Origin: a virus
Virus genome (UHGV): UHGV-0298230
Length of the DNA stretch: 24,011 bases
Reading direction: 5' to 3' (one strand)
Part shown: positions 1 to 24,011 of the stretch, piece after piece
How the letters are laid out: each line of letters starts with the position of its first letter
Position numbering within the stretch: the stretch's first letter is position 1
Made by a program: the position numbers and the translations under genes
Notes under the pieces: generated by a model
Seen by the model: only the letters and a program-made list of their open reading frames with translations
What the model was told of the DNA's origin: nothing
The model's database searches: none

Positions 1-25
1 AAATAAGCTCTTAAGCCGCGCCAAT

Positions 26-46
26 GGGTAAAATAGCGGGTAAAAT
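26..46 (+). repeat. Two tandem direct copies of the 9-mer GGGTAAAAT (26-34 and 38-46, 3-bp spacer); candidate integrase arm-type binding sites
   Basis: Exact 9-mer repeated twice; the same 9-mer recurs in both orientations at 236-280 on the other side of the putative core. Confidence 0.45.
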
Positions 47-104
47 TTTTTTCACATCTAAAAAACACCATTCCAATCAATCCCCTGCCGCTTCAAGTAG
101 ATGT

Positions 105-119
105 CTGCAGGGGACACCA
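105..119 (+). other. Candidate att core: CTGCAGGGGACACCA, resembling the 3' end of a tRNA (T-stem 3' half, acceptor 3' strand, discriminator, CCA)
   Basis: Ends in ...GGGGACACCA; resembles the 3' end of tRNA-Arg argW as I recall it; no matching 5' acceptor strand 60-90 nt upstream, so it is a fragment and not a complete tRNA; lies between the two 9-mer repeat clusters and just upstream of int. Confidence 0.5.
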
Positions 120-235
120 TTTATCAGTTCGCTCCCATCCGTACCAGTCCGCAAAATCCCCTGAATATCAAGCCTTCCGTAGATTCACAGTTCGTCATGG
201 TTCGCTTCAGATCGTTGACAGCCGCACTCCATGAC

Positions 236-280
236 GGGTAAAAAGTGGATAAAATAATTTTACCCACCGGATTTTTACCC
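236..280. repeat. Cluster of the same 9-mer in both orientations: GGGTAAAAA 236-244, GGATAAAAT 247-255, ATTTTACCC 257-265 (inverted), ATTTTTACCC 271-280 (inverted); candidate arm-type sites overlapping the int translation start
   Basis: Direct reading of sequence; the repeats end 1 nt before the int ATG at 281. Confidence 0.45.
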
Positions 281-1438
281 ATGCTCACCGTTAAGCAGAT
301 TGAAGCAGCAAAGCCGAAAGAAAAACCATACCGCCTTCTCGATGGTAATGGCCTGTACCTTTATGTCCCTGTATCCGGGAAAAAGGTATGGCAGCTTCGC
401 TACAAGATTGACGGTAAGGAGAAAATCCTGACCGTCGGAAAATATCCGCTTATGACTTTGCAGGAAGCAAGGGATAAAGCATGGACTGCGAGGAAAGACA
501 TCTCGGTTGGCATCGATCCGGTAAAAGCGAAAAAGGCTTCGTCTAACAACAATTCCTTTAGCGCCATTTACAAGGAATGGTACGAGCACAAGAAGCAAGT
601 CTGGTCTGTAGGGTATGCGACTGAACTTGCAAAAATGTTTGATGACGACATTTTACCTATCATCGGCGGCCTTGAAATTCAGGATATTGAGCCGATGCAA
701 CTGCTGGAAGTAATCCGCAGATTTGAAGATCGCGGTGCAATGGAGCGAGCCAACAAAGCCCGCAGAAGATGCGGCGAGGTTTTCCGTTACGCTATTGTTA
801 CTGGTAGGGCTAAATATAACCCGGCACCTGACCTTGCTGACGCCATGAAGGGGTACCGCAAGAAGAACTTCCCGTTTCTTCCTGCAGACCAGATCCCGGC
901 ATTCAATAAAGCACTGGCAACATTTTCAGGAAGTATCGTATCGCTCATTGCCACCAAGGTTTTACGCTACACTGCCCTAAGAACGAAAGAGCTTCGTTCC
1001 ATGCTATGGAAGAACGTCGATTTTGAAAACAGAATTATCACCATCGACGCCAGTGTGATGAAAGGACGCAAAATTCATGTGGTCCCGATGTCAGACCAGG
1101 TGGTTGAACTTCTCACTACGTTAAGCTCCATCACCAAACCAGTATCAGAGTTTGTTTTTGCCGGGCGCAACGATAAGAAGAAGCCAATCTGCGAGAATGC
1201 GGTACTGCTTGTGATCAAACAAATCGGCTATGAAGGTCTGGAAAGCGGTCACGGATTCAGGCATGAATTCAGCACGATTATGAACGAGCACGAATGGCCT
1301 GCTGACGCTATTGAAGTACAACTTGCACATGCCAACGGCGGATCTGTGCGCGGGATTTACAACCATGCTCAGTATCTCGATAAACGCAGAGAAATGATGC
1401 AGTGGTGGGCGGACTGGCTTGATGAAAAGGTGGAGTGA
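281..1438 (+). CDS. intS: Tyrosine integrase, P4/IntS-type (N-terminal DUF4102-like arm-binding domain plus C-terminal catalytic domain), 385 aa
   Basis: ORF 245..1438 begins with GTG; the first ATG is at 281 (MLTVKQIEAAKPKEKPYRLLDGNGLYLYVP...), a typical P4-family integrase N-terminus. The sequence matches my recollection of E. coli CPS-53/KplE1 IntS. C-terminal HxxR...Y-type region is present. Confidence 0.9.
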   Translation: MLTVKQIEAAKPKEKPYRLLDGNGLYLYVPVSGKKVWQLRYKIDGKEKILTVGKYPLMTLQEARDKAWTARKDISVGIDPVKAKKASSNNNSFSAIYKEWYEHKKQVWSVGYATELAKMFDDDILPIIGGLEIQDIEPMQLLEVIRRFEDRGAMERANKARRRCGEVFRYAIVTGRAKYNPAPDLADAMKGYRKKNFPFLPADQIPAFNKALATFSGSIVSLIATKVLRYTALRTKELRSMLWKNVDFENRIITIDASVMKGRKIHVVPMSDQVVELLTTLSSITKPVSEFVFAGRNDKKKPICENAVLLVIKQIGYEGLESGHGFRHEFSTIMNEHEWPADAIEVQLAHANGGSVRGIYNHAQYLDKRREMMQWWADWLDEKVE

Positions 1439-1590
1439 TCCACCTTAACCACTATCGAAGAGCACAAAGCCTTGCAATCCAGCGCAACGCTTTGTGTGTC
1501 TCAGTTTTGTCTCATCAACCATAGCAAGTATCGATCGATTGAGACTTGGATGATAGACTTCATGCCTTTCAGAATTCATTGATTAAATAA

Positions 1591-1953
1591 ATGTTAAAGC
1601 TATTTGCAAAGTACACCTCGATTGGCGTGCTGAACACACTTATACACTGGGTGGTTTTTGGTGTATGTATCTATGCCGCGCATACCAATCAGGCTCTGGC
1701 AAACTTCGCAGGTTTCGTTGTGGCTGTGAGTTTTAGCTTCTTCGCGAATGCAAGATTCACATTCAAAGCATCGACTACAACGATGCGCTACATGTTATAT
1801 GTCGGGTTCATGGGAACACTGAGTGCAACTGTTGGATGGGCTGCTGATAGATGTTCACTTCCTCCAATTGTCACTCTCATCACCTTCTCAGCCATCAGTC
1901 TTGTGTGCGGTTTCGTCTATTCAAAGTTCATTGTCTTTAGGGATGCGAAATGA
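1591..1953 (+). CDS. gtrA: GtrA, bactoprenol-linked glucose flippase (120 aa, 4-TM small membrane protein)
   Basis: Size, hydrophobicity and sequence ([24 protein letters not shown]...) typical of GtrA/YfdG; stop overlaps the gtrB start (ATGA at 1950-1953). Confidence 0.9.
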
Positions 1954-2873
1954 AGATATCTCTTGTAGTTCCTGTCTTCAATGAAGAAGAAGCAATACCA
2001 ATTTTTTATAAAACGGTACGTGAATTCGAAGAGTTGAAGCCATACGAAGTGGAAATTGTTTTCATAAATGACGGCAGCAAAGACGCTACGGAGTCAATTA
2101 TTAATGCTCTGGCTGTTTCAGATCCTCTAGTTGTTCCGCTGTCATTTACACGAAACTTTGGTAAAGAACCAGCATTATTCGCAGGGTTAGACCATGCAAC
2201 AGGCGATGCTGTTATTCCTATTGATGTTGACCTGCAAGACCCGATTGAGGTTATTCCTCATCTGATTGAAAAGTGGCAAGCAGGTGCCGATATGGTGCTT
2301 GCTAAACGATCTGACCGATCAACGGATGGCAGACTGAAGAGGAAAACCGCCGAGTGGTTCTATAAGCTACATAACAAAATTAGCAACCCGCAGATCGAGG
2401 AAAACGTTGGTGATTTCCGCTTGATGTCTCGCGAGGTGGTGGAAAACATTAAGCTCATGCCAGAGCGCAACCTGTTTATGAAGGGCGTGCTGAGCTGGGT
2501 TGGCGGACGCACCGATGTCGTTGAATATGCACGAGCAGAACGAGTCGCAGGCAGCACTAAATTTAACGGATGGAAACTGTGGAACCTTGCCCTTGAGGGG
2601 ATAACCAGTTTCTCAACATTCCCGCTGCGCATGTGGACTTATATCGGATTGTTCGTTGCTGGAATTGCTTTTCTTTATGGTGCATGGATGATTTTTGACA
2701 CGCTTGTATTCGGCAATGCTGTTCGTGGATATCCATCGTTATTGGTCTCCATTCTTTTCCTTGGAGGTATTCAACTTATCGGTATCGGTGTACTTGGTGA
2801 ATATATAGGAAGAATTTATGTGGAAGTAAAATGCAGACCACGATATATTTTAAAGAAAAAGGAACAATCATGA
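1950..2873 (+). CDS. gtrB: GtrB, bactoprenol glucosyltransferase (GT2 family, 307 aa)
   Basis: N-terminal GT2 motifs ([10 protein letters not shown]..., DGSKD, D-x-D region) and two C-terminal TM helices; classic position after gtrA. Confidence 0.92.
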
Positions 2874-4141
2874 ATAGCATAAACACAAACAGAATATTTT
2901 TGTTTTTGATTATATTTGTTATATGTTTCATCATATTCTGCATGCGTCGTCCTGATATTATTTCACACCCTCAACTATGGGCAGAGGATGGACGGGTATG
3001 GCTTGGTCAGGCTTATGCATTGGGCCCTCTGAAATCTATAATTTTAGTACAGGATGGTTACTATCAGACAATTTCAAAACTTGTTGCGACATTCTCCATG
3101 CTGTTCCCATTATATCTATCACCTTTTATTTTCACTGTTATTGCATTATCGATAAGATGCGTAATAATAACCTTCATACTATCTAATAGATTCAAAAGCG
3201 TTTCTATATATCCAAGAATATTAATTTCAATCTTCATTTTAACTATGCCACACCTTGAAGAGGTGCATGCCAACGTAACCAACACTCATTGGTATATGGC
3301 AATATGGCTATTCTTGGTGCTGGTAGCAGATAGAACTGATGGATTATATTGGAAAGCACACGACTTTTTGGTGATGGTTGTGGCTGGCCTAAGTGGGCCA
3401 TTCATTGTTTTTTTAGCTCCTGTTGCCTTACTAAGAATTACAAACGGAGATATTCTAAAAACTCCTATCAATGCAGTAAAAAATGCATTCAGAAACTTAA
3501 ACTTATTCTACATAACTTTCGCAATAGTGTGTTTAATTCAGATAGCCGCGATACTTCTCTCTTCTAAAGGCTCTCGACCGACCGCGCCACTTGGTGCAGG
3601 TGTAGGGATTTTGATGGATATACTATCCTCCAGAGTATTCCTTGGCTCATTTCTTAGTGAGAGCTTATCAAGAAAGGTGTGGGATCTGCATGCTTTAAAT
3701 TACTTTGTTTCTTTATGTGGCCTATCAATTAGTGCATACGTGCTATTAAAAGGGAACTGGAAAGAAAAAGCATTAGTGATTTTTCCTTATCTTATGTTGG
3801 GATTTGCCCTTGCCAGACCAGTCATTGCAAGAGACCAGCCTCAATGGCCTCTCTTACAAATAGGACCAGGACAAAGGTATTTTGTCATACCGGCCATATT
3901 TTGGGTGTCGATACTTCTAGCATTCACTAATATGCTTCATGGGCATGTAAAGAAATTAGCATTTTGCATAGTGGCTTGCTCAGTAATTATATCTGGAATT
4001 GTTAGCTTTAAAATTGAAAAAAGACCTAACAATGGATGGATACAAGAGGCATACAAATATGAGACAGCAGAGCCAGGGAGTCGCGTGAAAATGCACACAC
4101 TACCACACTCAGGATGGTATTTAGATATAATAAAAAAATAA
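2831..4141 (+). CDS. Serotype-specific O-antigen glucosyltransferase (GtrC-type polytopic membrane protein), 436 aa; alternative start at 2870 (423 aa)
   Basis: Highly hydrophobic multi-TM protein directly after gtrB; visibly AT-rich compared with flanking genes, as is typical of type-specific gtr genes. ATG at 2870 overlaps the gtrB stop (ATGA) and has AAGGAA 6 nt upstream, so it may be the true start. Confidence 0.8.
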
Positions 4142-4142
4142 G

Positions 4143-4170
4143 TTAAGGGCGGTATTCGCCCTTAATTTTA
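4143..4170. terminator. Bidirectional rho-independent terminator between the convergent gtrC and tailspike genes
   Basis: Perfect hairpin TTAAGGGCG-gtatt-CGCCCTTAA (4143-4165), flanked by an A-run upstream and TTTTA downstream; sits between stops at 4139-4141 (+) and 4168-4170 (-). Confidence 0.75.
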
Positions 4171-6060
4171 TCTAACTCTTGTTATCATAAAGTCAAAATC
4201 TGCATCAGCCAAGTTGCCAGAGTTATCAGTGGTCACGATCCTGATGGCTGTTGTGCTTGGCTTGCCTGCATATAGCACCTTAAACCCGTTAGTTTTAGTA
4301 CTTGCTACTACCTGAAAGTCATTTACTGTTGGTCCATATAAGAAAGCGCTATCAATTGAATATACCCCTGTGGATTGTTTTGCTATTGTTAAATAAGATG
4401 GTGCATACGCAACACCTGCCGACGTTACACTTCCAGAAATCACCGATGAAGTGCTTACCGTAGATATAGACTTGCTTATGTCCTCACTAAAATGACAGGT
4501 ATCCATTCCATTTAAAGTCATATAAGCACCTCCTGAGATAAATGGTCTCGAAGCGCTAGGTATGTATCCAAAAGCTGTTTGAGTAAAAAAATGACACCCA
4601 TTAAGGTTAACAATGACACGCCCACCACCAGTGCTTAACGCTCTAATCACATATGTACAATAACCGCCTGATGAATTCCCCCTTATAAATGTGCATGAAT
4701 TGATATTTACAATAAGAGGTGAAGATGTCATGTTATTAACCTGAATGTCTGATATTCCTTGATTTGCTTCAAAATAGCAATCAGATATATTTATCACAGA
4801 CATTGGTTCTTTAGCTCTTAGGTAAACACCTCCTGTACCAGTATCTCCCTGAGTTCCATTACCCTCAAAATTGCAGTTGTTTAGATTTATCCTTGTGCCT
4901 ATCTCTCCTTCAATTCCAAATTTTGAGTTACCACTAAAAACACCATTTATTTTTAGTGCGTTAACTGTGCTGTTTGTTCCTCCGTTGATGTACATACCGT
5001 AGTTATTATATTGAGAGTTAATTCTGTTAAATTCACTGGTAAGAACTCCTGTTATTACCAAGCCTGAATTATTTCTTACGAGATACACATCCTCAACTTT
5101 TAGGTATGCAGCATTGCTTAACCTTAATCCAACTCCAGAGTTACCAGTACCATAAACAGTGAAATTAGATAACTTCATACCGCTATGCACACCCTGCCCG
5201 CCCCCTTCTGAATTACCTATATACTCAAGGAAATCATTGCCATTGGTGTTAAATGCAGTATTCGCCATTGACTCGCCAGTAAAGTCAAACCTCTTACTTT
5301 TTCTTCCCATTACAGGAAAATTTGATCCAGAGTGGTTTACTGTAACTTTTGTGGTAGAATTGTATTGCCCATCCTTAATTTCTATACCTCCAGTACCAGT
5401 ATTAAGCATATTTTGAATAGCAGGTGAAACCTCTGTTCCAGATTTCACGCCAAACCATGAAGCCATTTTTGCGCCATTATATGAACGCTTCCAGCGACGG
5501 CCTACTGCATCAATTAATACTGTTCCATCATCATCTTCTGTCGTTGTATCATCTGAATCAAGGAAGAACCATCCTTCTCCTCCATCCTGATTATGTTCTC
5601 TTCCTACGCATTTTATTTGCGTTCCAGAAACGTTAGATGTCCTTATTTGTTCATAAGTCGCCCCAACAATATAAGATTCACCATCAACTGCTGCTAATTT
5701 GTTTATGAAAGCTGGCAATGCCTGATCGGGGTCATACTTCAGCACATTAGGAAAATAGAACTGCTGCGTACCATACGCATCATAAACAGCCATAGAATGG
5801 CCTTGCACGGTAACGAATTTGGCAATCTGTCCGTTATATACAGGGTAACCAGCCGCATTAATGATGATTGGTTGCGAAACAGGAACGTGAGAACCATCTT
5901 CGTTCTCTACATAAACCTGAATCTGGTTTTCAGGATTTACCGGGTCAGTGTCAATTTTACCGATATAAATTTTGCCATTGGCAACCGCTTTAAAAGAACG
6001 CGCCATAGTGAAGAGTTGCGAAGGCATACTCACTACAACATTGGCTGTAATGTCTGTCAT
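4168..6060 (-). CDS. Tailspike protein (630 aa): conserved P22-type N-terminal head-binding domain plus parallel beta-helix receptor-binding/O-antigen-cleaving domain
   Basis: N-terminal ~113 aa ([43 protein letters not shown]...KYDPDQ) closely resembles P22 gp9 head-binding domain; remainder has beta-helix-like repeats ([33 protein letters not shown]). Confidence 0.9.
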
Positions 6061-6135
6061 TTAATTTGCTCCAGATACAAGGAATCGCCGCAGCGTGGCT
6101 ACGGTTGGTATTTGTTGCATACCGAAACGGTACGA

Positions 6136-6164
6136 TTGTTGATTTGTACAGTAGGTTTTACGAT
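6136..6164 (+). promoter_or_regulatory. Candidate sigma70 promoter for the second mnt-like gene (-35 TTGTTG 6136-6141, 17-bp spacer, -10 TACGAT 6159-6164), adjacent to palindrome TACCGaaaCGGTA (6120-6132)
   Basis: Hexamer match and spacing only; weak. Confidence 0.3.
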
Positions 6165-6192
6165 GCCATTCCACCCATTTGGTGAGGCATTG

Positions 6193-6450
6193 ATGATGTA
6201 CAGCAAATACGATGAGGCGCAGTTCCACTTGAGGCTTACGCACGAGTTGCACGCCAAGATTAAGCAACGTGCAAAAATGAATAACAGGTCTATCAATTCC
6301 GAAATTGTGGCTACGATGGAAGAATCGCTCTCCAAACCATCACCTGTAAGCGGGTATCGTGATGAAGAAGAGAGGCTTGCCTCATTAATCTCGGAACGAG
6401 TAAAAGAAGTTGCGGCTGATATTCTTAGAAAAGAAAAAACCCGCGATTAA
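6193..6450 (+). CDS. mnt: Mnt-like ribbon-helix-helix repressor (Arc/Mnt family), 85 aa
   Basis: Sequence MMYSKYDEAQFHLRLTHELHAKIKQRAKMNNRSINSEIVATMEESLSKPSPVSGYRDEEERLA... closely parallels P22 Mnt as I recall it (…NGRSMNSE…SKPSPVTGYRNDAERLA…); SD GGTGAGG 6 nt upstream of the ATG at 6193. The long ORF 5797..6450 in the track is an artefactual N-terminal extension antisense to the tailspike. Confidence 0.8.
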   Translation: MMYSKYDEAQFHLRLTHELHAKIKQRAKMNNRSINSEIVATMEESLSKPSPVSGYRDEEERLASLISERVKEVAADILRKEKTRD

Positions 6451-6458
6451 GCGGGTTT
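6437..6458. terminator. Hairpin terminator AAACCCGC-gattaa-GCGGGTTT between the convergent mnt-like gene and the ant operon
   Basis: 8-bp GC-rich stem; on the minus strand it is followed by a T-run (TTTTTCTTTTC); the loop contains the mnt stop codon. Confidence 0.6.
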
Positions 6459-6464
6459 AATTGG

Positions 6465-6686
6465 TTAGTTATCAAAAAGTCCGTAAGTTTCTTCTTCTTC
6501 AGGTGTAAGGGGAAGAATCTCTACTCTATCTATAGATACCTTTTCAATGTACCCATGAGGTCTACTTAAAATTAAAGCTCTCTCATGCCACAGAACTCCA
6601 AGAATGTGATACCTTCCAGCATCTCCTTTTACCCTGGCTCTTCCTTTGATTCTTGGCGGCATAATGCCATATCTTTTCTTTGCCAT
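6465..6686 (-). CDS. Hypothetical small protein (73 aa), basic N-terminus and acidic C-terminus
   Basis: Start ATG overlaps the stop of the upstream gene (TAATG), indicating translational coupling; MAKKRYGIMPPRIKGRARVKGD...LTPEEEETYGLFDN; no family recognised. Confidence 0.55.
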   Translation of the reverse strand: MAKKRYGIMPPRIKGRARVKGDAGRYHILGVLWHERALILSRPHGYIEKVSIDRVEILPLTPEEEETYGLFDN

Positions 6687-7414
6687 TATGCAACATTGCT
6701 CCCATGAATCAGGTGTTGTAGTGCTTTAACACCCTCCGCATTGTAGCGGAATGCTTCCACCTGTTTGCTTGAATGCGCAGATTTATCCAAGAAGAACTTC
6801 CCGTACTGCTCAGTTTTGAGGTTGTTTGCGTTAGCAATGCGACCAATCTTGTTGGCCGTTACTCCAAGCTGCTCTGCAACCTCCCCTGCTGAGTAGTAAT
6901 GCTCTTCTATTGCCGGAAGAGGTATTGCATTAAAACCAACGAGCGGGTTGATTATACTTGCTGCCGCTGTCTGCTTTGCCTCCGGCGCAAGATTTGGCAT
7001 CAGATCGAACAGATTGGTAACAGCTTCAACCGTCATTTTCAATGTTCGCGCTTGACGATACTCAACAAGTCCACTCGCTGATTTACCGCTTTTAATGTGC
7101 GCTTCTTGCATACTTTCAAGTTGGTCTACCAGTGAGCGGCGAACGGCTTTTGACTCGCGAGCGGCAACTCGCAATGCTTGCTTGATTGACATCTCAATGA
7201 TAACCATCGAAGTTTTGTTCGCTTTTTGCACTACACTTTTTGTGTAGTGCTCTCCATCCAATTCATCTTCAATTTTCTCGATGAATTTGTTATTACGAAC
7301 CTCCGGCTCACCGCACTGTCTACGAGCCTGATTTACCATCTCAAGCAGGCGCTGGCTGTCAATGGTTTTATCCGTGACAACGGATCCGATGTTTGCTACA
7401 TTCTTAAAAGTCAT
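6686..7414 (-). CDS. Antirepressor-type regulatory protein, possibly Rha/ORF6N-like N-terminal region and KilA-C/ANT-like C-terminal region (243 aa from ATG at 7414)
   Basis: AAGGAA 6 nt upstream of the ATG at 7414; C-terminal ...YYSAGEVAEQLGVTANKIGRIANANNLKTEQYGKF resembles antirepressor KilA-C-type motifs; the ORF track start at 7501 is a TTG directly after the upstream stop. Confidence 0.65.
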   Translation of the reverse strand: MTFKNVANIGSVVTDKTIDSQRLLEMVNQARRQCGEPEVRNNKFIEKIEDELDGEHYTKSVVQKANKTSMVIIEMSIKQALRVAARESKAVRRSLVDQLESMQEAHIKSGKSASGLVEYRQARTLKMTVEAVTNLFDLMPNLAPEAKQTAAASIINPLVGFNAIPLPAIEEHYYSAGEVAEQLGVTANKIGRIANANNLKTEQYGKFFLDKSAHSSKQVEAFRYNAEGVKALQHLIHGSNVA

Positions 7415-7482
7415 TAGGCATTCCTTATGTGGTAGTAAGGGTGTGACATAGGCCGCCAGCAGCACACTGGCGGTTTTCTTTT
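7409..7482 (+). ncRNA. Candidate sar-like antisense RNA complementary to the start codon and SD of the 6686..7414 gene
   Basis: Plus-strand terminator CCGCCAG-cagcaca-CTGGCGG followed by TTTTCTTTT (7453-7482) lies in the intergenic gap of a minus-strand operon; candidate promoter -35 GTGACA (7374-7379), -10 TACATT (7397-7402); the transcript would contain UUCCUU, anti-SD to AAGGAA. Confidence 0.4.
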
Positions 7483-7501
7483 GCGCCGTCCTGTGCACCA
7501 A

Positions 7502-15986: not shown

Positions 15987-15994
15987 TTATTCAC

Positions 15995-16477
15995 CTATGA
16001 GTTTGGGATATCGCCATCAATCAGAGGGAGATCGCCTGGATAATATCGGTCAGATGTGAACACGTCATATTTATTACCCTGTCCTACAGGAAAATCTCCA
16101 CGTCGTCGCATTGAAGGAACAACCAGAGTGTCGGTCATCAAGGCATCATATGAGCGTTGGGCGTTACTGAGAACTTGCGGAGTTGGTTCAAGGCTGTAAT
16201 CAGATAGCATTCTCAGCAATAACTGATAGCCTACTGCGTGTTTGTATTTTCTTGGAAGACCTGACTCATCATCTGGTAATGGCTGCTCATCTCCAGTTGC
16301 GAAAGCGTAACCGATGTCGCCTGGGTTAATCATCCACTCGGACATCATATCTTCCAGATCATTTACACCATCTTCAATTGATTGCGGCTCAACATCAGTC
16401 AGCGATGCATTAGAAGCAATAGCAAACTTACGAAGCGCAAAAAGGACGATCTCACCCTTTGTCAGTACTGTTGCCAT
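15995..16477 (-). CDS. Head-to-tail adaptor, P22 gp4-like (160 aa)
   Basis: Motif ...[23 protein letters not shown]... parallels P22 gp4 (…[23 protein letters not shown]…) as I recall it. Confidence 0.85.
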   Translation of the reverse strand: [160 protein letters not shown]

Positions 16478-16637
16478 TGTCTGCCGCCTTACGACCTCGC
16501 TTACTGGTCGGTTTCAATTCATCAACTGAGGCAACAAAGCCCAACTTTTCGAAAAACTGGAAGTCTTTTTCTGCGATAACGGCCTGTACATGCCCGGATT
16601 CGTTATCTGCGGCAAGGAATACACTCATGCGATCCAT
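16452..16637 (-). CDS. Hypothetical small protein (61 aa) between coat and gp4-like genes
   Basis: AAGGAA 6 nt upstream of ATG, directly after the coat terminator; overlaps the gp4-like start in another frame. Confidence 0.5.
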   Translation of the reverse strand: MDRMSVFLAADNESGHVQAVIAEKDFQFFEKLGFVASVDELKPTSKRGRKAADNGNSTDKG

Positions 16638-16645
16638 ATTGTTTC

Positions 16646-16681
16646 CTTAAAACATAAAAGGGGCGTAAGCCCCTTGTTTTT
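16646..16681 (-). terminator. Rho-independent terminator immediately downstream of the coat gene
   Basis: Hairpin AAGGGGC-gtaa-GCCCCTT (16658-16675) followed on the minus strand by TTTTATGTTTT. Confidence 0.7.
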
Positions 16682-17951
16682 ACGGATTACCGAAGAACTG
16701 ACCGCCCATGTGAGGGTTAAAGCACACATATGCAGGCAGTAAGTCAAAGCGCATTTTTTGCACGTTGGCATCGCCATCTGCGTATTTATGTACGCGGATG
16801 GAGAAACCTTCATATGTTGCAACAGCAGAATCAATACTGTGCAGTTTCGGCAGTGGGATAGAGCCAAGTCCACAGAAGAACTTGTTATAGAACAGGTTTG
16901 GCTTCATTGTCTGGCTAGCAGTGCCTACTACAGATACGGCATCGCCTGCCTCTACCTGACGACTTACAGAGTTGTACTGCGGGTTTGTAGTGTCATAAAT
17001 CGGAACACCAGAAAGCGTAACCGTCACATCGCCACCGCTGTCTGAATTAGCATCAGCAGTAACCGTTGCAGTGAAGCTAATTGGTGTGGCTCCGTTATAC
17101 AACGCCTGTTTGGTCTGCTGTTGCAGCCAGTAGGTATTGGTGAATTTAACCTGATCACCAGCTTTCAGAAAACCTGTAACGCTGGCTGTCGCTCCGGTCA
17201 ATGTTACAGTGAACTGGTATGAGTCTTTAACTGCGTTATAGGTAACAGTTGGCTGTGTTTTGACTGTCAGTGTTCCGCCAAATGCCCCCTGCGTACGAGA
17301 GGCAAGCCCATTAGACATCAGTGCGCGAATGCCGCCAAAATTGGTTGGGATCTGTGCATTCTCCCATGCAGTACGAACCAATTGATCTGAAGCGTGCAAA
17401 CCAGTCTGCGCATCAGCAAGTCGCTGTGCAGACCATGGATCCATTACAGCATAGTTTTCACCTTCATTAACGCCGAGGTCTTTCAGGAAAGATGCCGTCT
17501 GCGCAACATCAGACCATTTGGTGATTGGAGTATTGGGGCTACCAAGTGACAACGCACCGTTATTCATCATGAAGTGAGCAAGCTCTGTTTCAAGGTCGGT
17601 AACGATTCGCTGGCGAACCGGCGCGAGAATTTCCTCCAGTTGGTTAAGCTTGATCGCTTCCTCCAGTTGCTGATATTCAACAGCAACAGTGATGTAGTTA
17701 CCTACACGCCCCGTAGCTTTACCTGAGATCAGGTTGTTTTTATTTTGCCCTGAAATATCACCAGTGGGAGTACGGAGGGATGAGAATTGATGCGGACGTT
17801 TAAAGCTAACGCTATCGCCAGTGCTGGAGTTGATTTCACCTGCCAGCAACTGACGGTCTACGGTTTTCGCCAGAACTAAATCTGACATAAAACCAGGAAG
17901 GAATTTTTTCAGAACGATTTGACTGACGTTACTGTCGAGATTGTTAGGCAT
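16680..17951 (-). CDS. Major capsid (coat) protein, P22/Sf6-type (423 aa)
   Basis: Length and sequence match my recollection of Sf6 gp5 coat; position after scaffold. Confidence 0.92.
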   Translation of the reverse strand: MPNNLDSNVSQIVLKKFLPGFMSDLVLAKTVDRQLLAGEINSSTGDSVSFKRPHQFSSLRTPTGDISGQNKNNLISGKATGRVGNYITVAVEYQQLEEAIKLNQLEEILAPVRQRIVTDLETELAHFMMNNGALSLGSPNTPITKWSDVAQTASFLKDLGVNEGENYAVMDPWSAQRLADAQTGLHASDQLVRTAWENAQIPTNFGGIRALMSNGLASRTQGAFGGTLTVKTQPTVTYNAVKDSYQFTVTLTGATASVTGFLKAGDQVKFTNTYWLQQQTKQALYNGATPISFTATVTADANSDSGGDVTVTLSGVPIYDTTNPQYNSVSRQVEAGDAVSVVGTASQTMKPNLFYNKFFCGLGSIPLPKLHSIDSAVATYEGFSIRVHKYADGDANVQKMRFDLLPAYVCFNPHMGGQFFGNP

Positions 17952-17962
17952 TTATCTTTTCC

Positions 17963-18847
17963 TTATTCGATTTTTGCGCCGGGGCATAATTTGTTGAATT
18001 CGTCTTGTTTCGCATCAGCACCGCCACCACGTACTTCCGGCTCTGGCTTGATGGCTTTCTTTGGTTTTGGAGCAAGGCTTACCTGTTTGCTAATCTGCCC
18101 CAAGAGGAATGCTGCGCGAATTGGATCTGTCTCAGCGGCTACACGCTGGCGTAATTGCTGGCTCTTACCTAAGCCATAGGCGAGTAGTTCAGAGCCTTCG
18201 TCTGCACAGTGAATGATGATTTCCTGCTGAATTGGTGGTAGCTCACTAAGAACAATGGCCTCCATTTCCTGATAATCTTTCACAGGAAGTTTGGCTGCCC
18301 GTTGTTTATGCGCTTCTACCCTTTGCTGGAAACGCTGTTGGTATTCCTGTTGCTGACGTAGTTTTTGTTGCTGCTGCTGTTCGACACGGCCTTTTTTCTC
18401 ATGCCAATCAGTCAATGCCTGTTCAAACGCCTGTTCGTCATAATCACACGACTCAAGAGTCGGTTTTGGTGGAATAGCGTCTGGTTGTGGTTGCTGATGT
18501 TCCGCAGGCTTGGCTAATGCTTCCTCAAGCTGGCGGCGCAACTCACGGTTTTCTTTCTGTGTTTCTTTGAAGCCTTTGCGAAGATCTTTCACCCATTGCG
18601 GTGCAGGTTGCCCGTCAATGTGATCATCATCGTCAGCGTTAAGCTGAATTTCTTCATCACCAATACGCAAGGCGTAATCTTCTGGTGTCTCTTCGGTTTT
18701 TTCAGGATCAGTTGCCATCTCTTTTCCGTTGTCATCCTGGCTTTCATTCTCAGGCTGTGACTCTGTTTGGATGATGGTTTCTTCTGCATTTTCCTGTGTT
18801 TCAGACAGGTCAATAACCTGACCGTCGATGATCAGTTCGTTTTCCAT
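17963..18847 (-). CDS. Scaffolding protein (294 aa)
   Basis: Acidic N-terminus, Gln/Glu/Arg-rich coiled-coil middle, basic helix-turn-helix-like C-terminus; between portal and coat. Confidence 0.85.
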   Translation of the reverse strand: MENELIIDGQVIDLSETQENAEETIIQTESQPENESQDDNGKEMATDPEKTEETPEDYALRIGDEEIQLNADDDDHIDGQPAPQWVKDLRKGFKETQKENRELRRQLEEALAKPAEHQQPQPDAIPPKPTLESCDYDEQAFEQALTDWHEKKGRVEQQQQQKLRQQQEYQQRFQQRVEAHKQRAAKLPVKDYQEMEAIVLSELPPIQQEIIIHCADEGSELLAYGLGKSQQLRQRVAAETDPIRAAFLLGQISKQVSLAPKPKKAIKPEPEVRGGGADAKQDEFNKLCPGAKIE

Positions 18848-18860
18848 TGATTACTCCTGG

Positions 18861-20987
18861 TTAACTCGGCATTAAGTCTGCCGGTGACTGTGGTGGTGAC
18901 TGGAATTGCTGTTGTTGTGACTCGGCGACATCTTTCAGAAGGCGTATTGCCTCCATCACTGCTTTGTCATCGATGTTTCTGGCTTGAGCCAGTTTATAGA
19001 CAGTGTTTGCCTGACTCTCCATCGCATCCTGCTGGGCAGTAAATGCTTTGATTTGAGTTTGAGCAGTTTCGTTAGTTGCTTTTTGCGCTTCTGCCTGCGC
19101 TGCTACCATTTGCGCCTGAGCGAGAACCATTTCAGGATTTGGCTGGCTTTGTGCTGCCATTTGCGCCTGTTGAACAATCTGCTGCTCTTTCTCATTGCGT
19201 GGTTTTGCAATGCCAGATATCAGCAGTTGGTTTCGGTTGTACTCTTTGAAGTCATCAAGGCCTTCGCCATCGATATTGTCCAGAATAATACCCTGAATTG
19301 CCGGACGCATTGGGTCTGTTGGAAGCATAGAGCTAAGGACATTTGTCAGTACAGAAACCGTTGCATCACGTCGTGCTGTGTAGCTTGGTCCAACATCAAC
19401 CGTCACATCGTATCGACCGACAGAAAGGTCATTTAACGCAACAACAGCCCCTGTTTGCCTGTCAACAACCTGTGCGCTCAGGACAGCGATATCATCACTT
19501 CCATCTTCGTTAACGATGCGCACTTCACGCTCTGAACCGTACACTTCACGAGCCATTGACAGCCATACTTCACCAGCGCGTTTAAGACTTTTCGCCATAT
19601 TGTCCAGATAGATAAACGAAGCCATATCTGCTCTGTTCATCAAGTTGTTAACCGTTTCCTGAGCAATATTACTTGGCATCTGCTGCATGGCCTGACTGCC
19701 GCCTGTAACCTCCTGAATATCAGCACTGGTTTGCTGTAGTAATGCAGCCAATGCCTGATTCATAACCGCAGGCTGTGTATATCCTGCCGGGGTAGCTCCA
19801 GCGATAATGTTGCCAGATTTATCTCTCACTTCGCGCAACGGCAAGAACGCTGGGCGCTTCTTGTTGCGAGCCTCCCAGTGCTTCTCAAGTCCACGAATTT
19901 GCTCCATGCCAACTATAGGGATCTGACCGGGGTCTTGTGCTGCAGTATCAGCCAGCATTGATACCTGAAGGTTATACAAACGCTGTGGATCCATTGCTTT
20001 TGCAATGTGCCCTTCGACACGCTCAATGTCATCAATGAACCAGCGTTTTCCATAAACCGGGATGAGGGGGATATGCTCACCAGGAATACGTCGAGGTTTC
20101 TCAAGGAAACCATCACCATCCACTACGGATACATACACACGACGGCGCTTCACTGAGCGCCTTGCCACTTCCTGAAATCCAGCTATTGCCAGTTCATCTT
20201 CAATATCTTCAACCTGATCACTGTCGTATGTTGCAACCTCTCCAGTGATTGGATGTCGATAACTGATGACGTCAACAGACTCTTTACGAACTTCGTAATA
20301 CTTCGCTATGTAAATAACATCTTCATCAAACCAGTCATATTCCCAACTGGTCATAGACGTTACGTCCAGAGAAGCAGGAGGTTTCTTTCCGTATTCAGCC
20401 TCATATTTTTCAGGTGACAACGAATACATGCAGAACGCCCACAACGCGTCAGATTTGTCGTACTTCTTAGCGTCAGGGTCAAACCACACAGAGCGCGACG
20501 GGTCGTATATTGGTTCAATAGCAATACGCTGACGATCGTCCATGGGGTCGTATTCATTGACCAGCATCGACGTCAAACGGAAGCAACCGAAACCACCGGT
20601 AGCAGCGTCGTCAAATGCATTATCGCAAGCCTCACCTCCATCAGTTTCTTCGTAGTCAGCACGGAACAGACCATTTAATTTATTGGCTAACTCTTCGCTT
20701 GCCTCTCTGTCACCAGGACGAAACTTAACGGTGATTCTGTTATTGCGGTATTCTGCAATGATGCGGTTAAGTTCAGTTGCTACCTTATTGATTTCAAACT
20801 TAGGATACTTCTCGAACTGCTCATCAAGCTTAGTTCCAGCCGCCGTTGCTCCTTCCCATTGACCTCCGGGGACACGAGCAAACCTCGTAGCTTCAATGCA
20901 CTTTTCGCGCACTTCCTGCTGTGGAGAATAGGCGCGGTCAAACCTGAGCATGATCCGCTCATGTTTTTTCTCTAATGTCTCTGCCAT
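18861..20987 (-). CDS. Portal protein, P22-type (708 aa from ATG at 20987)
   Basis: P22-portal-like motifs (…GEHIPLIPVYG…, RRSVKRRRVY) and a long C-terminal Gln/Ala-rich barrel region; the track ORF start (21059) would overlap terminase by 70 nt, whereas the ATG at 20987 sits 2 nt after the terminase stop. Confidence 0.88.
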   Translation of the reverse strand: MAETLEKKHERIMLRFDRAYSPQQEVREKCIEATRFARVPGGQWEGATAAGTKLDEQFEKYPKFEINKVATELNRIIAEYRNNRITVKFRPGDREASEELANKLNGLFRADYEETDGGEACDNAFDDAATGGFGCFRLTSMLVNEYDPMDDRQRIAIEPIYDPSRSVWFDPDAKKYDKSDALWAFCMYSLSPEKYEAEYGKKPPASLDVTSMTSWEYDWFDEDVIYIAKYYEVRKESVDVISYRHPITGEVATYDSDQVEDIEDELAIAGFQEVARRSVKRRRVYVSVVDGDGFLEKPRRIPGEHIPLIPVYGKRWFIDDIERVEGHIAKAMDPQRLYNLQVSMLADTAAQDPGQIPIVGMEQIRGLEKHWEARNKKRPAFLPLREVRDKSGNIIAGATPAGYTQPAVMNQALAALLQQTSADIQEVTGGSQAMQQMPSNIAQETVNNLMNRADMASFIYLDNMAKSLKRAGEVWLSMAREVYGSEREVRIVNEDGSDDIAVLSAQVVDRQTGAVVALNDLSVGRYDVTVDVGPSYTARRDATVSVLTNVLSSMLPTDPMRPAIQGIILDNIDGEGLDDFKEYNRNQLLISGIAKPRNEKEQQIVQQAQMAAQSQPNPEMVLAQAQMVAAQAEAQKATNETAQTQIKAFTAQQDAMESQANTVYKLAQARNIDDKAVMEAIRLLKDVAESQQQQFQSPPQSPADLMPS

Positions 20988-20989
20988 GT

Positions 20990-22402
20990 TTACCAACCGG
21001 AGGATGAGGGAACGTATATTTCTGTTTCTTCGCGGACCAATGCCGGGCAATGCATACACATCATCAGCGCATCAGCCAGGTTAGGAGATGGAATACCGAG
21101 CTTCTGCTTCATTTCGACCTTAGTCATTAGCTCCAGCTTCCCGTTGTTATTGAATTTGCGCTGAATCTGCGTCAGTTCTGCAAACAGCTTCTCCAGCATC
21201 TTCTCGCCTATCGCTTCTTTGTCGAAACTCAGCATGTCGTCAGGATCTGCGTACTCCCCATGGACAACCGCCCGATATGTCAGATACAGCCTGTCAGCCA
21301 GTGCGTAATAGAATTGCGCTCGCTTATTGCGGAACACATCACCAATAGTGCGAACGTTGTCGCCCTGTACGACTTCATCAGCCCATGCTCCGGCCTGATA
21401 AGGCGCATCTTCATCGAATGGCGATTCGCTGCCCTTGAACATCGTGGCGGTGATTTTCTTACCGGAGAACGCTTCCGTTGTCTGTCTGCGTAGCCCTGCA
21501 CCAACACCATCACCATCCCACAAGTAGTGGTCAGCGCCGTCTTCAATCGCCAGCGAAGTAGCCCAGTCAGCACCCTCGTTGATGTCCATCAGCAGACCTT
21601 CGGCAATGCGCTTAACTACCGAACCGTGACGCGATGCGTAACCTTTAGCATCTGGCCCTGTATCTGACGGGTCATGCGCAGAGACAACCGCACCCTTCGC
21701 TTTCCATCCGAGTTTCTTGTGCGCATCGGTTGCGGCTTCAAGCCATTCTCGTTTGATGATTGCCATATCACTTGCGCTTACCGGCTCACCAAGCCAGATG
21801 TGACGATACAGTGTCGGATTTCTGCGTTTACACTCTTCCATCTCAAGACGGAGAACTTCAGGAAAGTGCGGATTGTCGGTGTAGTTCACCGTCAGCAGAC
21901 AAATATCATCGGGAGGATTTACGACGAATCGCTGATAGGTATCGTCGAGGATGTTTTTCGGGTTAAAGCTCACCCATATTTCGGAAAACGGCTTGCGGAT
22001 GGTTGGTATCAGGATATCCCATGATTCCTTCGTTACCGCTTCCGCTTCTTCCACCCAGCAGATATCAATACCTTCGAGCGATTTAATCTTCGTCGGGTTG
22101 TTTTTGATGCCGTAGAACATGAACTCAGCATTCGTTCCGAGATGACGAATCATTGAACGCTGAATTTCAAACTCAGCCGAATACCCTTCCCGCTCTATGG
22201 TGTCTTCAAGCAACCGGATTACCGAATCGCTGATACTGTTTTGCAGTTCACGAGCGCAGAGAATACGCACTGGCTGACGACGCGCCGCTTCAACAAGCAG
22301 CCTCGCAATTGCCCATGATTTACCGCTACCTCGACCGCCTTTGGCGACTTTGTAGCGATGCGCCTCAATGAACGGTTCAAAGATAGGATTAATCGAGGTC
22401 AT
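20990..22402 (-). CDS. terL: Terminase large subunit (470 aa), Walker A GGRGSGKS
   Basis: N-terminal ATPase P-loop KGGRGSGKSWA plus C-terminal nuclease region; sequence matches my recollection of Sf6 gp2. Confidence 0.95.
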   Translation of the reverse strand: MTSINPIFEPFIEAHRYKVAKGGRGSGKSWAIARLLVEAARRQPVRILCARELQNSISDSVIRLLEDTIEREGYSAEFEIQRSMIRHLGTNAEFMFYGIKNNPTKIKSLEGIDICWVEEAEAVTKESWDILIPTIRKPFSEIWVSFNPKNILDDTYQRFVVNPPDDICLLTVNYTDNPHFPEVLRLEMEECKRRNPTLYRHIWLGEPVSASDMAIIKREWLEAATDAHKKLGWKAKGAVVSAHDPSDTGPDAKGYASRHGSVVKRIAEGLLMDINEGADWATSLAIEDGADHYLWDGDGVGAGLRRQTTEAFSGKKITATMFKGSESPFDEDAPYQAGAWADEVVQGDNVRTIGDVFRNKRAQFYYALADRLYLTYRAVVHGEYADPDDMLSFDKEAIGEKMLEKLFAELTQIQRKFNNNGKLELMTKVEMKQKLGIPSPNLADALMMCMHCPALVREETEIYVPSSSGW

Positions 22403-22824
22403 TTTCCGAATAGAGTACTCATCGGTGATGTTTCAATCTGGATTGCGCCGCCGTCTTTGCCGACAAGCTCGTTAGTTACCTTGTCGCCATACTTACGGGG
22501 ATTCATTCGGGCCAGCGCCCATTTGCGGGTATCAACGCGAAGTCTCGCCTTTGCCACCTCAGCAGCATCTGGAATCGCATTGTCAGCAATTTCGAATATC
22601 TCTTCGAAAATAGAATCAGCTCGCGCCTCAGTTGCCTTCGCGTACTTGTCTCTAAATTCGTCATGCTCTGACAGCCAGCGAAATACAGTAGCCTTTGCTG
22701 GCATGCCGGGGCGCTTGCAAACCTTAACCAGACTTTCCCCGGAGGCAAGCAGCGCACAGATATCATCAGCCACCTCCGGCAGGTAATCCGAAGGGCGACC
22801 GACATTCTTTTTCTCAGTCGCCAT
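22399..22824 (-). CDS. terS: Terminase small subunit (141 aa)
   Basis: Immediately upstream of and overlapping terL (ATGA); N-terminal HTH-like region; matches my recollection of Sf6 gp1. Confidence 0.9.
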   Translation of the reverse strand: MATEKKNVGRPSDYLPEVADDICALLASGESLVKVCKRPGMPAKATVFRWLSEHDEFRDKYAKATEARADSIFEEIFEIADNAIPDAAEVAKARLRVDTRKWALARMNPRKYGDKVTNELVGKDGGAIQIETSPMSTLFGK

Positions 22825-22903
22825 ATTGATTATTTCCCTTCTGCTTGCTTATCCCATTCATCGCGGAATTTGGATGGGTTGTCGAAACCTTGAGTTGCCA
22901 TGT

Positions 22904-23146
22904 TTATGCTCCGGTAGTGAACAGGTCTAACGCTTCCTTCGATTTACGCACCGCTTCGATTGTGCGGGTCGTGATATCTGAATTAGCGCCGCCTGACTGG
23001 AAGTGAATTTTGAATAGCTCAAGCTTCAGCTCGTCAGTGCCAATGAACTGAAATGCTTCCTCTGCTGCTGCGTTCTGGTTCATGACCAGTTTGTAAATCT
23101 CTAACTGGAATTTCTGTTCTTCAGTCATGGGAATAATCTCTGCCAT
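22904..23146 (-). CDS. Hypothetical small protein (80 aa from ATG at 23146), positional equivalent of P22 orf80 upstream of the small terminase
   Basis: GGAG 6 nt upstream of the ATG at 23146; size and position. Confidence 0.5.
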   Translation of the reverse strand: MAEIIPMTEEQKFQLEIYKLVMNQNAAAEEAFQFIGTDELKLELFKIHFQSGGANSDITTRTIEAVRKSKEALDLFTTGA

Positions 23147-23440
23147 TGTTGGCTCCATTTATCCGTTAAAAGGGATATCAGTTAAGTTATCCCGTGTAGG
23201 GTATAAGCCATTGTCGAGACCACTCATTGAATGGTCTCTGCAATAACCGATGTCTTTCCATCAGTCCGCCACCACAAAGAATCTTTTTTGCCATAAGGCT
23301 GGAGGTTCATCTTTCAGTGGCTGCCAGTGTTATTTCCCCACTTACTGGCTTGGGTTGTTTCGCTGTACTGCCGTAACTGGTTGCCAAGAATAAATTCTGG
23401 TTTCATTATCAAGCCCACCCGTAGATAGGCTTTGTAATGG

Positions 23441-23728
23441 CTACTTCTTCAGAACTGATTCGATGAATTCACGTCGGGGATGACGATAGTTCAGAATATC
23501 TTCTGGCATCCTCATAAAGCGGTTGTTGCCGTCTTTGGCAGTAACAAAACAGCTGTGAACTCCGCAGACATCCGTTTTGATTGTGTCGCTATACTCAAAA
23601 AGCAACTGAGCCATCTTCTCTTGCCATTCTGGCGGCATAGCCTCCATGAATACTCGCGGCATCACGCAGAACGGCGCATGCGTAAGACCAAACCACAGTT
23701 GCAGGTCTTTACGATATTCTTCATCCAT
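23441..23728 (-). CDS. Hypothetical protein (95 aa), Cys/His-containing, between the lysis cassette and packaging genes
   Basis: ORF with a plausible SD-like AGGTAA upstream; preceded by its own upstream terminator; no family recognised. Confidence 0.5.
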   Translation of the reverse strand: MDEEYRKDLQLWFGLTHAPFCVMPRVFMEAMPPEWQEKMAQLLFEYSDTIKTDVCGVHSCFVTAKDGNNRFMRMPEDILNYRHPRREFIESVLKK

Positions 23729-23745
23729 CGTCTTTACCTTTGTTG

Positions 23746-23772
23746 CAATAAAAAGCCCCGCGAATGCGAGGC
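23746..23772 (-). terminator. Minus-strand rho-independent terminator (GCCUCGC-auuc-GCGGGGC with one G-U pair, then UUUUUAUU)
   Basis: Hairpin is strand-specific (the plus-strand version has a C-A mismatch); lies downstream of the Rz-like gene end. Confidence 0.5.
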
Positions 23773-23946
23773 TAAATCCTGGTATTTGTAATGACTGGCT
23801 CTTATCTCAACGCAGCCCCTTACCGCGCGCAAGATGCTCAATATCAAGCATCAGCAATGAGATGTTTAATCTGGATTCACTCCAGAAGTGATCACCACCC
23901 TGTCTACAGAGCCAGATGTGAAGGATGATGAGTAAAATTATCGCTA

Positions 23947-24011
23947 TCATCGAAGGCATTGCGTCCTGATGTATTCCTGAAGCGTTCTCAGTGCTGTTTG
24001 GTCGCGGATAA
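23947..24011 (-). CDS. 3' end of a gene running off the window edge, possibly Rz (i-spanin)
   Basis: Minus-strand frame open from the window edge to the stop at 23947-23949; C-terminus ...LQEYIRTQCLR resembles the lambda Rz C-terminus (...QKYINEQCR); position is consistent with a lysis cassette upstream of packaging genes. Confidence 0.35.
   Translation of the reverse strand, partial: IRDQTALRTLQEYIRTQCLR

Follow-up and report, generated by a model that had tools for sequence, protein, structure and literature searches.

Modular Composition of a Metagenomic P22-like Podophage Contig: The int–gtrABC–Tailspike, ant Moron and Virion-Assembly Regions

We analyzed UHGV-0298230, a viral sequence of 24,011 base pairs (bp) that is referred to throughout as the window and that represents the whole of metagenome contig ERZ27273781 k119_16470 (ENA), a product of short-read k-mer (MEGAHIT) assembly. 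The window very likely makes up about 60% of the genome of a temperate, P22-like Escherichia coli podophage (Lederbergvirus, with Sf6-type virion genes) that is apparently intact and was assembled in its excised form, and its patchwork would be a normal product of recombination. It begins just past the position of xis/torI and ends, at 24011, within the lysis region. In between lie, in order, an argW-type attP, the IntS integrase gene, gtrABC, the tailspike gene, an immI-like ant moron and an intact Sf6-type assembly cluster that runs from gene 16 to terS. Since it has already been published that P22-like phages are mosaic, that their ant moron is hypervariable and that gtrABC is mobile (PMC2629481), the finding is an ordinary one. 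What is new is the pair formed by gtrC and the tailspike, which has no representative among sequenced phage isolates, along with the particular combination of modules.

Results

Known Modules in a Canonical Arrangement

A whole-window megablast search of INPHARED matched 267 of 50,697 phage records, and the best of these were all P22-like Lederbergvirus. The top phage record, phage N7, covered 65% of the window at 97.2% identity; the coverage was 52% for 611R6, 52% for HF4s, 50% for Sf6 and 48% for HK620. Some match to the window was also present in 3,737 of the 5,426 complete E. coli genomes, the best being a prophage of E. coli KSC207 (78% coverage, 97.7% identity). We looked for a single genome that is collinear with the window at high identity and found none with at least 80% coverage among either the phage records or the complete E. 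coli genomes, nor did any of the IMG/VR and gtrC-bearing draft-genome loci examined cover the whole window. Each module, however, is present separately, at 93–99% identity, in E. coli prophages. These results bear out the original prediction, made from the letters of the sequence, that the window is a mosaic: its modules circulate separately and no single genome covers it.

Is the way in which these modules are joined unusual? The comparison with P22 (16-sieA-mnt-arc-ant-9-gtrCBA-int) indicates that it is not. The order int–gtrABC–tailspike–immI–gene 16 is the canonical P22 arrangement, with different alleles in known variable slots, and every block of the window has the same order and orientation as in P22, including the divergence of mnt from arc-ant and the terminator between gene 9 and gtrC. 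The differences from P22 lie in the sequence types of the coat, terminase and scaffold genes, in the attP, which is on the other side of int, and in the immunity proteins, which are 30–57% identical; furthermore, the window has two Mnt paralogues and an additional orf242-orf73 pair, and it has no sar between arc and ant.

The closest relatives each lack part of the combination. N7 (MH717096, Lederbergvirus), Sf6 and HK620 share with the window the argW-type attP, IntS and the Sf6-type assembly cluster, and N7 has the Sf6-type needle knob, orf106 and genes 16 and 20 in common with the window as well. On the other hand, N7 has no gtrABC, a different receptor-binding domain in its tailspike, a different N-terminus of terS and a different ant moron (a P22-like Ant of 311 amino acids with arc); Sf6 has oac in place of gtrABC, no ant moron and a different gene 16/20 pair; and HK620 has only annotated remnants of mnt and ant at the position of the moron. 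The KSC207 prophage (NZ_CP019558) matches 5723–13722 and 14348–23381 at 97–98%, and about 20 other complete E. coli genomes have the same ant moron, but KSC207 lacks gtrABC, its receptor-binding domain is of another kind, and its needle is of the short type found in HK620 and P22. Finally, draft argW prophages (GCA_020541625, GCA_013772175, GCA_002549135; IMG/VR UViG_2690316195_000001) carry the int-gtrABC-tailspike cassette at 97–98% nucleotide identity, but with other gene 16 alleles and with an ant moron that consists of either mnt and a gene for 161 amino acids or a P22-like ant/arc/mnt set and a Rap1a gene.

Comparison with seventeen related loci placed the breakpoints at ~1447–1650 (the end of int and the int–gtrA spacer), 2810–2857 (where gtrB meets gtrC), 4537 (within the C-terminal part of the tailspike, for one relative), 5722 (where the head-binding domain gives way to the receptor-binding domain), 6105 (upstream of the gene for the tailspike), 6327 (inside mnt2), 8220 (the arc/ant junction), 8381–8410 (the operator region), 8791–8811 (the mnt1/orf106 spacer), 11029 (the gene 16/20 junction), ~11880–11958 (inside gene 20), 12542 (the end of gene 20), 13722 and 14348 (the needle tip) and 22487 (inside terS). 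The cassette of gtrC and tailspike occurs beside three kinds of ant moron and with differing alleles of gene 16 (in loci L011/L012/L014, in L013 and in the window), and the window's ant moron adjoins other tailspikes in other genomes; the modules therefore move independently.

We propose that such genomes keep a fixed architecture, in which alternative alleles fill the known variable slots. In the window, the slot for O-antigen conversion, located between int and the tailspike, holds gtrAB and a rare gtrC, with the receptor-binding domain co-inherited with gtrC, and the ant moron slot between the tailspike and gene 16 holds mnt2, the arc-ant-orf242-orf73 operon, mnt1 and orf106. The remaining variable slots are the needle tip, the N-terminal portion of terS and the ejection-protein genes 16 and 20. 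Exchange would occur at domain boundaries and in conserved flanking sequence, for which int/gtrAB, the head-binding domain and the conserved termini of the ejection-protein genes would serve. It would probably proceed by recombination, homologous or illegitimate, among P22-like phages that are co-resident or superinfecting, as has been proposed for this group.

Could the combination instead be a MEGAHIT chimera of two or more co-occurring P22-like phages, joined through near-identical stretches such as the one that spans the tailspike head-binding region and mnt2 (5723–6327)? The contig was built from metagenome k-mers, P22-like prophages abound in E. coli, as the number of matching genomes attests, and the regions matched by the two best "parents" share about 600 bp, with 97–98% identity to the window. 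Two points weigh against our interpretation: both "parental" module types contain this stretch, at which the assembler could in principle have switched strains, and the early/regulatory half of the genome lies outside the window, which limits what can be claimed about completeness and viability. On the other hand, the exact 630-amino-acid tailspike occurs on six contigs of 20–50 kilobases (kb), the other five of which carry mostly the same neighboring proteins; all reading frames are intact across every breakpoint; and natural prophages are equally mosaic. We consider an assembly chimera highly improbable and retain the interpretation of a naturally recombined phage genome.

The Lysogeny End and the Predicted Junctions

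The attP core was defined by the 16-bp overlap (105–120) between the matches to the two ends of the K-12 prophage CPS-53, and the annotations of Sf6 and HK620 place a 16-bp core in the corresponding position. Phage sequence flanks the core on both sides. Integrated E. coli prophages match the window only from base 105, where they adjoin tRNA-Arg, whereas phage genomes match from base 1; the contig is therefore the excised form of the phage. Positions 1–120 match the opposite, torI-side end of CPS-53 at 97.5%, and the torI side of Sf6 and HK620 is matched as well. No tRNA genes were found in the window. In KSC207 (L002, NZ_CP019558, 9230–42897), we observed that torI immediately precedes intS, a junction that belongs to the phage form, and that the match to the window begins at base 1. 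Consequently, either this prophage is not in the usual argW-integrated permutation or its record was assembled in the phage form.

The original prediction likened int and gtrAB to the CPS-53/KplE1 module of E. coli, and this likeness is real: positions 105–2810 are 91.1% identical in nucleotides to intS-yfdG-yfdH of K-12 CPS-53, a decayed prophage that resides at the same argW site with the same attachment core, IntS/TorI module and torI-side end. It differs from the window in its yfdI (gtrC), which is unrelated to the gtrC of the window, and has none of the window's virion-assembly genes. The further claim, that a CPS-53 lysogeny module had been joined to an Sf6-type module, did not survive the comparison. 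IntS is 99–100% identical in amino acids to the K-12 protein and also to the integrases of Sf6, HK620 and N7, and positions 1–1447 are matched at 95–97% by Sf6, HK620, N7 and KSC207. The IntS/TorI argW recombination module is known to be common to KplE1, HK620 and Sf6 (PMC3509656). Since IntS is equally native to Sf6, HK620 and N7, there is no notable CPS-53/Sf6 join at int.

Two terminator-bounded sites, at 4143–4170 and 6437–6458, had been proposed as module boundaries. The hairpins themselves are genuine, as both exceed shuffled controls (z −3.5 to −5.1) and have T-runs on both sides; each separates convergent genes, and P22 has a terminator at the equivalent site between gene 9 and gtrC. 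No comparison, however, showed a break in similarity at either site: L011, L013, L014 and L016 are continuous through 4143–4170, and twenty-three complete genomes, including KSC207, are continuous through 6437–6458. Nor is there the break in composition that was expected at the proposed junctions. The G + C content is low in gtrC and in the receptor-binding domain of the tailspike (38.6%) compared with 46.2% for the window, and the steps lie near 2870 and 5721. At 4143–4170, it is low on both sides and continuous, and only the G + C skew changes sign, because the coding strand flips. These results show that the two hairpins are the ends of transcription units and not recombination breakpoints.

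The same observations bear on the possibility that the window is a hybrid of an uncommon sort, with an Sf6 morphogenesis backbone that had acquired both a CPS-53/KplE1 lysogeny module and a P22 immI island by grafting and with the terminators (4143–4165 and 6437–6458) as graft junctions. The 91% identity of 105–2810 to CPS-53, the absence of immI from Sf6, the two terminators and the lack of a single genome covering the window would all fit such a hybrid. It is nevertheless highly improbable, given the shared IntS (PMC3509656) and the continuity of both similarity and composition described above. Furthermore, the island is 30–57% identical to P22 proteins, yet 94–99% identical to islands in more than 20 E. 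coli prophages, some of which (KSC207) have Sf6-type virion genes. Ordinary exchange of alleles within the P22-like group accounts for the window better than such grafting.

A Rare gtrC Linked to the Tailspike Receptor-Binding Domain

The gtrABC genes form one operon between int and the tailspike gene, at the same position as in P22, and the ATG of gtrC overlaps the gtrB stop codon as ATGA. GtrA is 95% identical in amino acids to K-12 YfdG and 81% to P22 GtrA, GtrB is 92% identical to YfdH and 89% to P22 GtrB, and the two together are 92–98% identical to their E. coli prophage homologues compared with 81–89% for the P22 proteins. Clusters of gtrABC are highly mobile among P22-like phages (PMC2629481). 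GtrABC would glucosylate the O-antigen.

GtrC is rare. It has no match in Pfam or NCBIfam, and in a collection of 5.8 billion proteins, its homologues comprised a single 99% cluster, from E. coli, with all others at or below 50% identity; the latter come chiefly from Enterobacter, Citrobacter and Pantoea, and some of them bear the name glucosyl transferase. There was no similarity to the GtrC of K-12, P22, HF4s or APEC20/16. An exact 40-mer of gtrC had no match in IMG/VR, and a protein-based scan gave one contig there, which has a different ant moron. An exact-protein look-up of a 436-amino-acid reading of GtrC returned nothing; the gene is called here from the internal ATG at 2870, which gives 423 amino acids. 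Draft E. coli prophages, on the other hand, share GtrC at 99–100% amino acid identity.

The tailspike combines a common head-binding domain with an uncommon receptor-binding domain. The Pfam Head_binding domain spans residues 1–113, and these N-terminal 113 amino acids are 96–99% identical to those of HK620, N7 and 611R6. For the receptor-binding domain, there was no match at the DNA level in phage records, and the same was true when its DNA was searched together with that of gtrC in distant mode. At the protein level, this domain is related to the tailspike gp13 of siphophage Sf11 (PDB 9occ_G, E 8e-43), an example of receptor-binding domains shared across phage morphotypes; Shigella siphophage Sf11 uses the O-antigen as its receptor (PMC12724387). 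A match to the Sf101 tailspike (53% over residues 1–507) includes the head-binding domain. The tailspike of the window probably recognizes O-antigen.

Furthermore, gtrC and the receptor-binding domain travel in company. The int-gtrABC-tailspike block (105–6105/6327) is present at 97–98% identity in the draft E. coli prophages L011, L013, L014 and L016, and from int onward (281–6327) at 96.9% in one IMG/VR contig. These results indicate that gtrC and the receptor-binding domain are one low-G + C unit that moves together, presumably because both act on the same O-antigen. The co-inheritance is not absolute, as E. coli VTB97584v has a tailspike with 82% amino acid identity in the receptor-binding domain beside an unrelated gtrC.

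The ant Moron

The immI-like island (6061–9137) sits between gene 16 and the tailspike gene and contains three Arc/Mnt-family genes and an antirepressor gene of the Bro-N/P22_AR_C type. In the order of late transcription, gene 16 is followed by orf106 and mnt1 (both on the opposite strand), a 105-bp control region, arc, ant, orf242 and orf73, a terminator, mnt2 (on the opposite strand) and the tailspike gene. The original prediction was correct in recognizing this island and in expecting it to be absent from Sf6, which has no genes but a 165-bp gap at this slot; HK620 has only the remnants mentioned above. Both phages have been described as lacking a functional immI, and the ant moron as a rapidly changing region for which sixteen genomes yielded ten types (PMC2629481).

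The predicted resemblance to P22 immI holds for the layout, whereas the sequences are only distantly related and there is no sar between arc and ant. Arc is 42% identical to its P22 counterpart. Mnt1, at the canonical mnt position, shares with P22 Mnt only the N-terminal ribbon-helix-helix domain (56.8%), whereas Mnt2 is 46.6% identical to P22 Mnt over 73 amino acids, nearly its full length, and its homologues carry PF11423 Repressor_Mnt. Ant has Bro-N in place of P22_AR_N and is related to P22 Ant over the C-terminal 66 amino acids only (30%).

The spacer across which mnt1 diverges from arc-ant (8390–7502) contains a perfect 21-bp palindrome, ATGACATCACCGTGATGTCAT, at 8407–8427 and a 25-bp palindrome at 8433–8457. 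A Pant-like promoter, TTGACA-16-CATAAT (8461–8434, − strand; 11 of 12 consensus positions), faces arc, and a promoter-like site on the + strand overlaps it. The palindromes overlap the arc-facing promoter and are likely operators of the Mnt and Arc types, in the same arrangement as that of P22. Upstream of mnt2 (6061–6192), a search for an operator-like palindrome gave only weak ones with 5-bp arms. The island would work as an antirepressor immunity circuit. The gene orf106 has no sequence similarity to SieA; by analogy with the position of sieA, its membrane protein is a possible candidate for superinfection exclusion.

Where does the island come from? In 23 complete E. coli genomes that match at least 80% of the 5700–9200 query, it is 94–99% identical and has three Arc-family genes; KSC207 has an island of identical content (mnt2/orf73/orf242/ant/arc/mnt1/orf106) at 99.4% across 5723–9200, and phage JEP4 matches 73% of the 5700–9200 query at 93.7%. 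The island is thus an allele already resident among the P22-like genes of E. coli and not an import from P22.

Two further observations concern the distribution of its parts. In L011, L012, L014 and VTB97584v, the whole island consists of a Mnt-like homologue and the gene for 161 amino acids, with no arc or ant. The Mnt-like homologue of VTB97584v is 71% identical to Mnt2, and L011, L012 and L014 share the first half of mnt2 within the cassette. Therefore, Mnt-like repressors may have a role beyond the control of ant. Separately, an arc/Bro-N-ant/orf242 cassette was found at ~70% nucleotide identity in phages that are not P22-like, namely Klebsiella KP12 (L018), ST11-VIM1phi8.1 (L019), where it lies near the tape-measure gene, and Providencia PSTNGR2lys (L020), where it lies near a tail-fiber gene. 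This cassette is therefore a mobile moron, and its movement extends across both phage types and host genera.

A Candidate sar-like Antisense Unit

No sar was found between arc and ant: the two genes overlap by 11 nucleotides (nt), so there is no gap for it, and Rfam at E ≤ 1 gave just two sub-threshold chance matches in the window, neither of them sar, and no match to any family between arc and ant. Could the regulatory RNA lie elsewhere in the operon? In the 87-nt gap between ant and orf242, antisense to the operon, we observed a promoter-like sequence, GTGACA-17-TACATT (7374–7402), with an extended −10 element, followed by a terminator hairpin. The predicted RNA of ~76 nt (7409–7485, + strand) would be complementary to the start codon and Shine–Dalgarno sequence of orf242, and this layout with respect to orf242 is that of P22 sar with respect to ant.

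Among 43 distinct sequences (from 84 homologous loci), 39 keep the hairpin stem and T-run, with variable loops and differing upstream neighbors. The stems are almost invariant, and the single compensatory pair is in a Providencia phage; therefore, the support for the hairpin is conservation, not covariation. The unit matches no Rfam family. We regard it as a lead, a candidate whose RNA is predicted only.

Virion-Assembly Genes and the Window's End

Genes were assigned with Pfam, with the precomputed Pfam annotation of called genes and with tblastn against annotated Sf6, HK620, P22 and N7; NCBIfam and PADLOC gave nothing informative for the island proteins, GtrC or orf95. The P22/Sf6 gene order named in the original prediction (terS, terL, portal, scaffold, coat, 4, 10, 26, 14, 7, 20, 16 and, past the island, tailspike) is confirmed by tblastn and by the Pfam families P22_Tail-4, Phage_stabilise, Phage_tail_NK, DUF2824, P22_gp7, Inj_translocase, Phage_P22_gp16, Head_binding and Sf6_terminase. 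All virion genes (9138–22824 and the tailspike gene) are intact and have the same lengths as in relatives (Table 1), with a small open reading frame between gene 4 and the coat gene.

The cluster is 95–97% identical in nucleotides and 98–100% in amino acids to those of Sf6, HK620 or N7, except for gene 26 (86%) and terS (91% to Sf6), and N7 matches 8791–22487 at 97%. Coat, portal, terL, gene 10 and gene 4 are 99–100% identical in amino acids to Sf6, whereas in P22 they are unmatched or 32–37% identical, apart from gene 10 (93%). Therefore, the order is that of P22/Sf6 but the sequence type is that of Sf6. In the ε34 genome paper, which describes the mosaicism of P22-like phages, no exchange was seen between procapsid genes of the Salmonella type and the E. 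coli/Shigella type (PMC2629481), and the ejection proteins have been reported to be highly mosaic (PMC10883804). The window agrees with these descriptions.

Two smaller swaps were seen within the cluster. The needle knob (13722–14348) is common to Sf6 and N7 and not to HK620 or KSC207, which match only the N-terminal half of the needle. The N-terminal part of terS (22487–22830) is of the Sf6 type in Sf6, HK620, HF4s and KSC207 and not in N7, 611R6 or APEC20/16.

Beyond terS, the window ends with a DUF2560 gene followed by the edge of the lysis region. Here, orf95 (23441–23728, − strand) aligns with the profile phrog_3527 over positions 139–230 only, out of 233, and none of the comparator loci has an equivalent. 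It is possibly a truncated gene of the variable rha/kilA slot that separates terS from the lysis genes.

Table 1. Position, strand and supporting evidence for the features of the window. Percentages followed by a phage or strain name are amino acid identities to its protein.
Feature	Position	Strand	Evidence
attP core CTGCAGGGGACACCAT	105–120		16 bp, identical to the 3' end of tRNA-Arg argW
int, IntS-type tyrosine integrase (385 amino acids)	281–1438	+	Pfam Arm-DNA-bind_3, Phage_int_M, Phage_integrase
gtrA, bactoprenol-glucose flippase family	1591–1953	+	Pfam GtrA_DPMS_TM
gtrB, GT2 bactoprenol glucosyltransferase	1950–2873	+	Pfam Glycos_transf_2
gtrC, serotype-specific polytopic membrane glucosyltransferase (423 amino acids)	2870–4141	+	Eight hydrophobic segments; G + C 37.5%
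Bidirectional intrinsic terminator, gtrC/tailspike (convergent)	4143–4165		−16.3/−14.9 kcal/mol; z −5.1/−4.3
Tailspike (630 amino acids)	4168–6060	−	P22-type head-binding domain 5722–6060; low-G + C receptor-binding domain 4168–5721
mnt2, full-length P22 Mnt homologue, divergent from tailspike gene	6193–6450	+	Pfam Arc
Bidirectional terminator, mnt2/arc-ant operon end	6437–6458		−13.8/−12.4 kcal/mol
orf73 (phrog_4977)	6465–6686	−	100% KSC207
orf242, second antirepressor-like gene (phrog_1726, 242 amino acids)	6686–7414	−	254 relatives in IMG/VR
Candidate sar-like antisense unit	7374–7485	+	Promoter-like GTGACA-17-TACATT; terminator hairpin 7450–7476 and T-run
ant, antirepressor (240 amino acids)	7502–8224	−	Bro-N N-terminus, P22_AR_C C-terminus (Pfam); PHROG anti-repressor families
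arc (58 amino acids)	8214–8390	−	Pfam Arc; 41.9% P22 Arc
Divergent promoter/operator region	8407–8461		Palindromes and Pant-like promoter
mnt1, ribbon-helix-helix repressor (83 amino acids), canonical mnt position	8511–8762	+	Pfam Arc 4.7e-18
orf106, one N-terminal transmembrane segment, sieA position	8809–9129	+	phrog_10450; 97% N7 homologue (N7 ORF14 by position)
Gene 16-type ejection protein (668 amino acids)	9138–11144	−	PF26808 Phage_P22_gp16; 100% N7 and KSC207, 32% Sf6
Gene 20-type ejection protein	11141–12556	−	PF16928; 99% N7, KSC207, APEC20/16
Gene 7-type ejection protein	12567–13262	−	PF25688
Gene 14 homologue	13265–13723	−	PF11039; 98% Sf6
Gene 26 tail needle, Sf6-type knob	13720–14568	−	PF16532 Phage_tail_NK; 86% Sf6 and N7
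Gene 10 homologue	14568–15986	−	PF11134; 99–100% Sf6 and HK620
Gene 4 homologue	15995–16477	−	PF11650; 99% Sf6
Coat protein, Sf6 type	16680–17951	−	100% Sf6 gp5; no tblastn match to P22
Scaffolding protein	17963–18847	−	99% Sf6
Portal protein	18861–20987	−	99% Sf6, 32% P22; same 2127 nt as portal genes of Sf6, N7, KSC207
Terminase large subunit	20990–22402	−	100% Sf6; no P22 match
Terminase small subunit, Sf6 type	22399–22824	−	PF20901 Sf6_terminase; 91% Sf6, 100% KSC207

Discussion

Could the window hold something more novel? Two modest proposals can be made: that the ant moron is a distinct variant of immI, and that the rare GtrC and the receptor-binding domain linked to it represent an uncharacterized pairing of O-antigen modification and receptor specificity in E. 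coli. We make them only tentatively and consider them somewhat unlikely. For the first, the sequence would suggest a variant with two Mnt paralogues and two antirepressor-like genes, in which orf242 may be controlled by the conserved sar-like antisense RNA. The cassette of arc, Bro-N-ant, antisense unit and orf242 would also move between podophages and siphophages of Escherichia, Klebsiella and Providencia.

Beyond its annotation, the window has little significance, being one more case of the documented modular evolution of P22-like phages. It also indicates that terminators are unsafe as recombination junctions unless comparative evidence supports them. The pair of tailspike and gtrC has a possible use in O-antigen typing or host-range engineering. 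Furthermore, the window shows that a conversion gene and the receptor-binding domain of a tailspike can move as one unit.

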